From positions 31-32,030 of the forward strand of contig CAYVIS010000001.1 in the NCBI GenBank assembly GCA_964451565.1: 32,000 bases of DNA. The letters run 5' to 3'. The translations under genes and the position numbers were made by a program. Below are positions 21,606 to 21,904 of this stretch, piece by piece. This DNA comes from an uncultured Neisseria sp. GTDB taxonomy: Bacteria > Pseudomonadota > Gammaproteobacteria > Burkholderiales > Neisseriaceae. Position 1 is the first letter of the stretch. The number at the start of each line of letters is the position of its first letter. The notes under the pieces were generated by a model that was not told where the DNA came from, searched no databases, and saw only the letters and a list, made by a program, of their open reading frames with translations.

Positions 21606-21904
21606 CTTCAAACCTTAATTATGCGGGTTATACCCAAGATACCGTTATGACTGTCTAGTGAATGAACCATGCGCACCAATCTTTTCTGCGCATTTCAATA
21701 TGCAGGCCGTTATTTGGCGGTGTCACATGGCTCGAAGCTTTAAAGCGCCTCCGGCGGCGTTCGCCACGTGGCAGGCGGTCGGGCATAAAAACCGCCCGAC
21801 CACCAGCTAATAGCGTATTTCTGTTTCTGAGCGTCAAGGGGTATTCATAAAGATTTTTAAAAAGCAAAAATCTTTACAAAGCTTCCCCTTGACTTGATGG
21901 CAAA
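21606..21904 (-). ncRNA. Structured non-coding leader of the recombinase gene; candidate bridge-like guide RNA and/or phage intergenic ori/packaging region
   Basis: Largest non-coding stretch in the prophage. It has a GC-rich centre with several hairpins: 21669-21693, 21778-21800, 21833-21893. It contains att-related words at 21636-21645 and 21679-21687. The track ORFs here (21655-21867, 21662-21850) look non-coding. Confidence 0.25.
21833..21893. other. 61-nt nested hairpin (candidate packaging signal / origin hairpin / terminator after the morphogenesis genes)
   Basis: Outer stem GTCAAGGGG (21833-21841)/CCCCTTGAC (21885-21893). Inner stem AAAGATTTTT (21849-21858)/AAAAATCTTT (21866-21875). 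7-nt apical loop. Confidence 0.5.

Follow-up and report, generated by a model that had tools for sequence, protein, structure and literature searches.

A candidate IS621-type bridge RNA in the leader of the recombinase gene of a Neisseria filamentous prophage

How does a filamentous phage that carries its own IS110-family recombinase choose where to enter the chromosome of its host? The question is raised by a stretch of 32,000 nucleotides (hereafter the window; contig CAYVIS010000001.1, positions 31 to 32,030, assembly GCA_964451565.1) from an uncultured Neisseria sp. with an AG-type uptake sequence, in which gene calls and Pfam matches identify the minus strand from ~28.1 kb to 20.6 kb as an Nf-like filamentous prophage with all of its genes on one strand. 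Its last gene encodes an IS110-family DEDD/serine recombinase, and a non-coding gap of 299 nt separates the ATG of that gene from a 58-aa open reading frame (ORF) upstream. An initial annotation made from the window alone had pointed to this gap and this recombinase, both of which we confirm (PF01548, PF02371), and had proposed a bridge-like guide RNA 5' of the recombinase gene with guides for the target and the phage ends; sequence comparison bears this out. We consider it highly likely from that comparison that the gap encodes, in its 3' ~130 nt (21733..21603, minus strand), an IS621-type bridge RNA for the downstream recombinase, and the virus very probably picks its integration site through RNA base-pairing.

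The reference for what follows is the bridge RNA of IS621, an IS110-group element of E. coli (Durrant et al. 2024, PMC11208160; Hiraizumi et al. 2024, PMC11208158). Its target-binding loop (TBL) carries a left and a right target guide (LTG, RTG), its donor-binding loop (DBL) a left and a right donor guide (LDG, RDG), and we refer to the corresponding DNA halves as left and right target (LT, RT) and left and right donor (LD, RD).

The leader and its probable guide segments

A protein search returned 788 recombinase homologues, and ~150 related loci were compared overall. The nearest were fetched individually (P0002, 85% identical and lying between narI and an FKBP gene; P0004, 58% identical, between murJ and a permease gene), and 145 further loci came from metagenome and IMG/VR contigs found with a 34-recombinase alignment; a scan of genome contigs with the single recombinase protein gave just 3 distant loci. 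The collection also took in contigs that cover this chromosome region, some carrying the phage and some not. The IS621 sequence used for comparison was verified, being 100% identical in E. coli genomes and adjoining an annotated IS621 transposase there. The phage recombinase aligns with that of IS621 over its full length (34% identity, E = 2e-67). D7, E54, D96 and S235 are invariant in the 34-member alignment and D99 is nearly so; reading from the pairwise alignment, we take these to be the counterparts of the IS621 catalytic residues D102, D105 and S241 (PMC11208158).

An alignment of the final ~130 nt ahead of the ATG is possible for all relatives down to ~43% recombinase identity, and the element is recognisable down to ~33%. 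It has a long stem, GAGCCAUGUG-ACACC pairing with GGUG-CGCAUGGUUC, that encloses a large internal loop with a small hairpin; a linker rich in U then leads to the motif A(C/U)(A/G)GUAUC(U/A), to a second, short hairpin and to ..UAAGG, containing the ribosome-binding site (RBS), and the ATG (Table 1). The centre of the gap had been described as hairpin-rich, and the minus strand of its 299 nt folds far better than shuffled sequences (z = -5.4); the minimum-free-energy (MFE) fold of the core displays both the TBL stem and the DBL hairpin. Comparative evidence for the TBL stem-loop is extensive: 16 of its 17 pairs have changes on both sides, and 97.4% of alignment cells are paired, with RNAalifold and an explicit pair count in agreement. 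The outer stem alone has 13 pairs, 12 of them compensatory (98.3% of cells paired). For the structure as a whole, none of 500 shuffles did as well, and sliding the partners by 1-3 columns lowered the paired fraction to 28-46%. A 7-bp hairpin singled out in the initial annotation (ATGCGCA/TGCGCAT) is confined to this phage; in relatives TGCGCAT forms the 3' arm of the long conserved stem.

A covariance model built from 23 related leaders (R1) has a single match in the window (101 bits), which spans the core as listed in Table 1. The model also matches leaders of clades outside its training set at 21-51 bits and, with filters off, aligns the IS621 bridge RNA from the first base of the TBL stem to the ATG (L177, 1705-1852). 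Rfam 15, searched with the gathering threshold on the window and an E-value threshold on the gap, returned noise only; this silence on the phage leader is uninformative because IS621 itself is unmatched, i.e. Rfam is without a bridge-RNA family.

The RTG, LTG and LDG match DNA partners in the window and covary with those partners across the related loci; the candidate RDG can pair with its own partner and varies with it in two classes only. In IS621 the RTG occupies the 3' side of the first loop, where its sequence is the reverse complement of core and right target (PMC11208160); the phage leaders have NNNNN-AG there, followed by AU. Guide and target were compared over the five bases after CT at 66 distinct right junctions, tandem ones excluded, and are complementary at 314 of 330 positions; with one junction taken for each of 18 guide classes the count is 85/90, compared with 40.3 +/- 4.4 when partners are permuted, and none of 100,000 permutations was as good. 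There are four natural reprogramming pairs in which the recombinases are 94-95% identical and the leaders near-identical, and in which one guide base and the matching target base differ: GGGAAAG with CT-TTCCC and GGAAAAG with CT-TTTCC; TCCGAAG with CT-TCGGA and TCCAAAG with CT-TTGGA; CAAAGAG with CT-CTTTG and CAAAAAG with CT-TTTTG; and AAAAAAG with CT-TTTTT and AGAAAAG with CT-TTTCT.

The sequence AAGAU, made up of the end of the RTG and the AU after it, is invariant in the 23 aligned leaders. By analogy with IS621, where the handshake guide A81/U82 pairs with the last two bases of the donor left half (donor positions 6-7) after strand exchange (PMC11208158), we assign the AU that follows the RTG as a putative handshake guide. 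The 9-mer AGAAAAGAT of the initial annotation (21687..21679, minus strand, correctly equated there with plus strand 20627-20635) matches across the integrated junction because the bases that correspond to this AU are the AT of ACGGTAT.

The LTG points to the other side of the target. As AACGGCCU, it corresponds to the end of a DNA uptake sequence (DUS) hairpin plus CT: the chromosome left of the phage reads ..TTCAGACGGC-CT (28085..28074), the reverse complement of the 12-mer AG-DUS AGGCCGTCTGAA, so that a guide AACGGC-CU faces a left flank ..GACGGC-CT (28081..28074). Over the five bases before the core, LTG and left flank agree at 37 of 40 positions (8-9 guide classes), compared with 17.6 +/- 3.8 when permuted; 2 of 100,000 permutations scored as well. 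Guide and flank both follow the uptake-sequence dialect that the host uses (flanks ACGGC-CT, ACGAC-CT, TAGC-CT, CTGC-CT and CCTGCA-CT). Thus LTG ACGAC-CA accompanies the AG-mucDUS flank ..CAGACGAC-CT (L078, L097, L106), UUAGC-CU the eikDUS flank ..CAG(A/G)TAGC-CT (L114, L035), ACUGC-CU the kingDUS flank ..CAGGCTGC-CT (L049), and CCUGCA-UU the king3DUS flank, in forward orientation, AAGCAGCCTGCA-CT (L116, L117, L122 and L003, the last from Kingella denitrificans ATCC 33394); further pairings are CGCUCC-CG with ..TAGCTCC-CT (L082, L145, L156) and AAAAC-CU with ..GAAAAC-CT (L148). The DUS 12-mers, which we take to be those of the published figure, are consistent with the dialect differences described in the text of the dialect paper. 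Dialect names and host assignments follow that paper (PMC3630211). The window holds 30 copies of GACGGCCT and no intact ACGGCCTTTTCT; the RTG would therefore narrow thousands of uptake sequences to few sites.

On the donor side, the leader 7-mer falls into five classes (ACGGTAT, ACAGTAT, GTAGTAT, GTAGCAT, TTGGTAT), and each recurs at the right end of its own element, 26-530 nt past the recombinase stop in relatives. At the LDG position IS621 has ACAGUAUCA, with the donor end ACAGTAT-CT. The word ACGGTATCTTG, reported earlier at 21645..21635 (minus strand) as equal to 28039..28029 over 11 nt and to 20640..20631 over 10 nt, is indeed present with these matches, and the earlier remark that the two words derive from opposite strands and overlap fits the assignment, in that LDG and RTG both cover the core, as in IS621 (PMC11208160). 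The LTG and the RDG had been missed. Of two weaker echoes proposed in the same place, TGGCTCGAAG and AGCGTCAAG, both are present in the sequence but are not conserved or are otherwise explained, TGGCTCGAAG being absent from the closest relative, L013. Guide-flank covariation among aligned leaders had been suggested as a check on the guide RNA, and it is what the RTG, the LTG and the five matched LDG classes display.

The apical hairpin of the DBL occurs with different stems by clade (GGGC/GCCC, UGUC/GACA, UGCC/GGCA, UGGC/GCCA, AGGC/GCCU), as read by inspection of the alignment, in which the MAFFT columns are out of register at this point. The possible pairing of the RDG with the phage left end resembles, by analogy, the discontiguous 9-on-7 donor pairing of IS621 (PMC11208160).

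Table 1. Coordinates of the leader, guide segments, junctions and other prophage features in the window
Feature	Position	Strand	Remarks
Bridge-RNA core (candidate): TBL, linker and DBL, through the recombinase ATG (21605..21603)	21603..21733	-	R1 match, MFE fold
TBL outer stem, 5' arm GAGCCAUGUGACACC	21719..21733	-	pairs with 21677..21664
TBL outer stem, 3' arm GGUGCGCAUGGUUC	21664..21677	-	same pair count
LTG, AACGGC + CU (AACGGCCU)	21704..21711	-	equals top strand of left chromosomal flank ..CAGACGGC-CT, 28080..28074
TBL inner hairpin GCAU-AUUGAA-AUGC	21690..21703	-	four pairs, all with compensatory changes
RTG, AGAAA + AG	21681..21687	-	reverse complement of CT-TTTCT, right junction 20633..20627
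Putative handshake-guide counterpart in TBL, AU	21679..21680	-	complementary to AT ending phage right end ACGGTAT
LDG, ACGGUAU + CU (ACGGUAUCU)	21637..21645	-	identical to phage right end + core, 20640..20632
DBL apical hairpin GGGU-AUA-ACCC	21625..21635	-	all clades, differing stems
RDG GCAUAAUUAAGG, overlapping the RBS	21613..21624	-	AUA-(AU)-UAAG can pair discontiguously with CT-TATAT, phage left end
Right junction	20627..20640	-	LD ACGGTAT 20640..20634; core CT 20633..20632; chromosomal RT TTTCT 20631..20627
Left junction	28065..28085	-	DUS end TTCAGACGGC 28085..28076; core CT 28075..28074; phage left end/RD TATATATTC 28073..28065
-35 box TTGACG, inside last recombinase codons	20648..20653	-	meets -10 only in circular form
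Second DBL-like module, phage left end	27985..28052	-	stem AGGGGC/GCCCCU, LDG-like ACGGUAUCU, hairpin GAGC/GCUC, RDG-like AUCGUAAGG
5' half of gap	21738..21904	-	long AU-rich hairpin closed by CAAGGGG/CCCCUUG plus GC-rich hairpin; strongly folded
IS110-family DEDD/serine recombinase, 320 aa	20643..21605	-	Pfam PF01548 (1.9e-23), PF02371 (2.4e-20)
Prophage genes in order: 73-aa ORF; Rep_trans initiator; small ORFs; 638-aa TspB-like protein; DUF2523 protein	27725..26340 (Rep_trans)	-	
Prophage genes, continued: Zot ATPase; 58-aa ORF; 320-aa recombinase	23224..22088 (Zot); 21605..20643 (recombinase)	-	

Phage ends, crossover and insertion site

The element spans from CT|TATATATTC (28075/28073) to ACGGTAT-CT (20640..20632), ~7.44 kb, and the crossover is the CT dinucleotide. 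CT is found at both junctions in nearly all loci and also in circular and tandem donor junctions, and in 8 loci, as well as in many that are more distant, a DUS hairpin precedes a CT|T(A/G)TATATT junction. The tandem contig L042 reads right end-CT-TATATATTCGCCCC.., i.e. the right end joined to the left end. Two circular contigs, L098 (7697 nt, coverage ~170x per contig name) and L108 (7723 nt), have 55-nt terminal overlaps and genomes of ~7.64 and 7.67 kb, with ends joined as GTAGTAT-CT-TATATATT. Integration at a repeat with a conserved CT has been described for Nf1 phages (PMC7058167).

The initial annotation had instead placed a 10-bp core, AAGATACCGT (20631-20640 and 28030-28039), at the ends of a phage running from 20641 to 28039. 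The actual core is CT, and these boundaries had to be given up on the left: the 35-45 bp outside 28039 (TATATATTCTAAGCTCC..AGGGGCAUUUCUC in phage-gene sense) show conservation between three insertion sites that are unrelated, the block begins in eight loci immediately behind the CT ending a DUS hairpin, the right end is continued by TATATATT in circular and tandem contigs, and the LTG matches the DUS end, not the neighbour of 28039. The real left end lies ~35-45 bp further out (~28073), abutting the DUS hairpin, and the copy of ACGGTATCTT at 28039..28030 that had been taken for a phage end sits inside a second DBL-like module. A phage reaching 140 bp further, to the next DUS hairpin, was also rejected, as that segment is missing in relatives. 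Exact-pattern scans of IMG/VR for the attP predicted from the earlier boundaries, AATACGGTATCTTGAGCCAG, gave zero matches, and the looser pattern ACGGTATCTNGAGCCAG gave chance matches in unrelated phages only.

The prophage is flanked by mfd (end 20625) and by a substrate-binding-protein gene (28339-29130). Compared with an empty allele of the region (L017, 5860-5900), the occupied chromosome (28076-28213) carries an additional ~140 bp, which separate the phage from the resident DUS hairpin. This extra segment holds a DUS hairpin of its own and an LD-like ATAGTATCT, and its non-DUS part occurs, within the collected set, only in phage-bearing contigs; it may be an older polymorphism or the remnant of an earlier IS110-type insertion. 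One metagenome sample (ERZ15185918) contains two related phages, L004 and L181, whose recombinases are 85% identical and which have inserted at separate DUS, one at narI/FKBP and one at mfd, with AAGUAAG and AGAAAAG as their respective RTGs.

Proposed mechanism and rival explanations

A route of integration can be proposed from these guides. The double-stranded phage circle would join its ends as ACGGTAT-CT-TATATATT (donor form ...TTGACGCTTGAATACGGTAT-CT-TATATATTCTAAGC...), and recombinase and RNA would bring the joined ends to a DUS-CT-TTTCT site (target form ...TTTCAGACGGC-CT-TTTCTTTTATT...), where strands would be exchanged at CT and the ~7.44-kb phage inserted. Recombinase dimers would bind the two loops. 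Within the DBL, ACGGUAU-CU would pair with the phage right end and, after the small hairpin, AUA..UAAG with the phage left end CT-TATAT, the donor loop thereby pairing with both strands of the joined ends; the target loop would pair with the DUS end, CT and TTTCT. Handshake bases would stabilise the exchanged state, the serine and DEDD sites would exchange strands, and excision would be the reverse reaction with the same guides. The predicted empty alleles are ..TTCAGACGGC-CT-TATTTATTAC.. at the narI/FKBP site (L004) and ..TTCAGACGGC-CT-TTTCTTTTATTTCC.. at the mfd site. From the analogy with IS621 we infer that the leader is transcribed as a stable RNA, as well as its start site, its binding by the recombinase and the chemistry of the reaction.

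A more elaborate arrangement can be envisaged, in which a promoter present only in the circle would transcribe a stand-alone donor module (28052..27985) together with the replication genes, while the TBL would come from the internal leader; such a split system would couple excision, replication and re-integration through RNA. A DBL-only RNA is mechanistically conceivable, because an IS621 synaptic complex draws its TBL and its DBL from separate RNA molecules (PMC11208158). The joint reading, i.e. a phage with a reprogrammable bridge RNA, an LTG that tracks the host DUS dialect, an IS621-like element enlarged by ~6.3 kb of phage genes and a split TBL/DBL system, is put forward only tentatively.

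Several observations weigh against a bridge RNA in the leader, or at least against its close likeness to that of IS621. The match of R1 to the IS621 bridge RNA is in exact register but weak (11.8 bits, E = 0.04). A 5' stem-loop like the one that precedes the TBL in IS621 is absent, conservation ending ~10-20 nt upstream of the TBL arm, at a TAAAAT or TTTAAA box that resembles a -10; we do not regard this stem-loop, a feature of IS621, as defining for the family. The closing stem of the DBL is not clear in the window. The RDG varies with its partner in two classes only, UAAG with CT-TA ends and CAAG with CT-TG ends (L049, IS621). L117 and L119 break the RTG rule, and L004, L014 and L057 need a wobble or one mismatch; a chimeric assembly, recombination between co-resident phages or tolerated mismatches are possible explanations for L117 and L119. 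Scanning the gap for promoters and terminators gave no signal above that of shuffled sequence. Lastly, the sole empty allele found (L017) has GATTAT in place of TTTCTT next to mfd and is without the ~140 bp that include the DUS hairpin supplying LT, so that the true pre-insertion allele was not seen. Beside these, it was observed that L119 occupies the exact site of L053, whose RTG does match.

Other explanations for the gap were weighed against the same evidence. Filamentous phages exist as a single strand of DNA, and the guide might act in this form: if the packaged strand has the gene sense, it could fold into the same loops and pair DNA to DNA in the manner of IS200/IS605 ends. The covariation evidence speaks to sequence and strand and is silent on the type of nucleic acid, but the homologous IS621 works with in-vitro-transcribed RNA on double-stranded DNA (PMC11208160, PMC11208158), and the same leader architecture is present in plain environmental IS110-type elements (L061, L064, L067), with no phage genes on their short contigs; matches of G-U type (L004, L057 and the LTG of the L044 clade) are compatible with RNA pairing and not decisive. 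We regard a DNA guide as very unlikely. Little more can be said for the leader as an ordinary 5' untranslated region or operator in which ACGGTATCTT is recognised by protein, either to autoregulate the gene or to serve as an additional, third site of recombination in the manner of Piv-type invertases, and the protein picks the target. It is true that the phage has three copies of ACGGTATCTT, all oriented alike, that a motif near the RBS could affect translation, and that IS621 is capable of donor-donor recombination (PMC11208158), so extra donor-like sites could be substrates. Yet the motif stands at the position of the experimentally defined IS621 LDG, and the five bases before AG, like those before CU in the first loop, change with the chromosome flank among recombinases that are ~95% identical, which a protein-only choice of target leaves unexplained; we give this reading a similarly small chance.

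The initial annotation had itself raised the caveat that the region could simply be the phage origin or packaging region, which in its broader form (origin, packaging signal or terminator only) would make the word matches a matter of chance. This is possible for the 5' half of the gap, which resembles such a module and is placed elsewhere in other clades, but is contradicted for the 3' half, which is conserved to 32-35% recombinase identity with both structural and guide-flank covariation. Likewise, the claim that the words exceed chance holds by comparison with relatives and not in the window alone, where the three occurrences of ACGGTATCTT with at most one mismatch are reached by 6 of 100 shuffles. 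For the gap as a whole we consider the origin or chance explanation the least probable of those discussed here, and the bridge RNA in its 3' part continues to be our preferred reading.

Relation to known systems and further phage modules

The likeness to IS621 extends through most of the design. In both, the RNA lies directly 5' of a DEDD/serine recombinase gene, TBL precedes DBL, and LTG and RTG occupy the 5' and the 3' side of the first loop, respectively; AU comes after the AG that ends the RTG, and the core is CT. The RDG of IS621, like the candidate RDG of the phage, ends in AAGG and overlaps the RBS. The LDGs are nearly the same (ACAGUAUCA in IS621, ACGGUAUCU in the phage), as are the donor ends (ACAGTAT-CT-TGTAT and ACGGTAT-CT-TATAT), and in both a -35 box in the right end and a -10 box in the left end would make up a promoter only in the circle. 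Unlike IS621, the candidate phage RNA is without the 5' stem-loop, a second module resembling a DBL is present near the phage left end, the non-coding part of the right end is down to 2 nt with the -35 box inside the recombinase coding sequence, and the target is a DUS end instead of a repetitive extragenic palindromic (REP) element. A further difference is that ~6.3 kb of filamentous-phage genes separate the RNA from the left end and the junction promoter there, so the RNA cannot be the first transcript of that promoter. The earlier statement that the architecture departs from IS110 was accordingly right about these intervening genes but not about the RNA, which is directly upstream of the recombinase as in the rest of the group.

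Nf1/MDA prophages of Neisseria have their own IS110/Piv-type transposase, by which they integrate at dRS3 repeats (Kawai 2005, as cited in PMC7058167). They share with the present phage a gene set in which the IS110-family recombinase comes last, and a short chromosomal repeat with a conserved CT; the published description, in the form cited there, names a protein targeting dRS3, whereas this phage and its closest relatives insert at DUS ends. The recombinase is ~33-35% identical to those of the L149/L151/L164 clade, which is suspected to be meningococcal (host unconfirmed). With the bridge RNA or seekRNA of the IS1111 group the phage shares the recombinase family and the principle of target and donor guides. 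IS1111 elements encode the RNA 3' of the recombinase gene and bear long inverted repeats in subterminal position (PMC11208160); in the phage the RNA is 5' and the recombinase gene stops 2 nt short of the end of the element. The comparison can be carried to another site-specifically integrating filamentous phage, CTX-phi, from which the present one differs in having its own DEDD recombinase and guide sequences. CTX-phi integrates at dif through the host XerCD tyrosine recombinases, with a folded single-stranded attP.

A full-text literature search found no description of a bridge RNA in a filamentous phage or of an RNA guide for Nf phages. IS110 bridge RNAs have been known since 2024 and an IS110/Piv-type enzyme in Nf phages has been proposed since 2005, and the RNA itself is an ordinary relative of that of IS621; what is new is the setting, namely a virus as carrier, ~6.3 kb of phage genes before the RNA, a DBL-like module at the left end and an LTG that follows the DUS dialect. 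If confirmed, this would be, as far as we could find, the first described bacteriophage to choose its chromosomal attachment site with a bridge RNA, and it would provide a testable mechanism by which Nf-type phages, including the meningococcal disease-associated phage, choose short repeats bearing CT. It would also be a natural IS621-like system that moves ~7.4 kb of DNA, and one linked to transformation, with a DUS as integration site and a guide following the uptake dialect of Neisseria, Eikenella and Kingella hosts. The dozens of natural guide-target pairs, single-base reprogramming included, could help to engineer bridge recombinases.

The joined phage ends read TTGACG-N16-TATATA (or N18-TATATT), a predicted promoter of sigma-70 type, with the -10 in the left end at 28065-28073. 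Most clades have a TTGAC(A/G)-like hexamer at a fixed distance of 15-16 nt from the crossover, on its near side, with TATATAT beyond the junction; the junction promoter of IS621 is TTGCAG-N17-TATTAT. The predicted phage promoter faces the left-end module and the replication genes, and not the bridge RNA directly. Upstream of the TBL stem many clades have TG-N-TAAAAT, and in the window the TTTAAA at 21744..21739 could be the -10 of the RNA's own promoter.

The second DBL-like module, which would be the first to be transcribed from the junction promoter, lies ~20 nt inside the phage left end and contains the word (28039..28030) that had been read as a copy of the phage right end. It folds with z = -3.7, and its stems change in a compensatory manner in L114 (GCUAGUCC/GGACUAGC; UGCC/GGCA) and in L049; where recombinase identity falls to 35-38%, the module is reduced to a simple hairpin. 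The ~300-nt gap was originally considered as one guide RNA, and only its 3' ~130 nt are retained as such here. The hairpin module in its 5' half (..CAAGGGGAAGCUUUGUAAAG..CUUUAUGAAUACCCCUUG.. plus the GC-rich hairpin) is upstream of the recombinase in this phage and in L078, and in the L049/L055/L119 clade the same module is downstream, between the recombinase stop and the right end. Given that its position varies between clades, it is a separate phage element and not part of the guide RNA, probably a cis element such as an origin, packaging signal or terminator.

The gene set expected of an Nf-type filamentous (Inoviridae-like) prophage is complete, with Rep_trans, small coat-like ORFs, a TspB-like adsorption protein, DUF2523 and a Zot assembly ATPase; a total of ~7-8 kb was taken as the size criterion, and the related circular contigs are 7.64-7.67 kb. 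A megablast of the whole prophage against the GenBank phage collection gave no match. The 58-aa ORF (21905-22081, minus strand) is annotated in the P0002 phage contigs and not in contigs of this same phage; its standing as a gene is uncertain, and if it is not real the non-coding stretch is ~480 nt long.

Leaders of similar make-up also accompany environmental IS110-family genes from non-Neisseria metagenomes (L061, L064-L067, L069), which share the motifs ..AACGGUAUCUUAGGCC..GCCUGCAUUCACAAGG... The phage-derived model matches L061, L064 and L067 at 29-32 bits, with no phage genes visible on contigs that are short. On this sequence evidence the leader design seems to be common well beyond phages.

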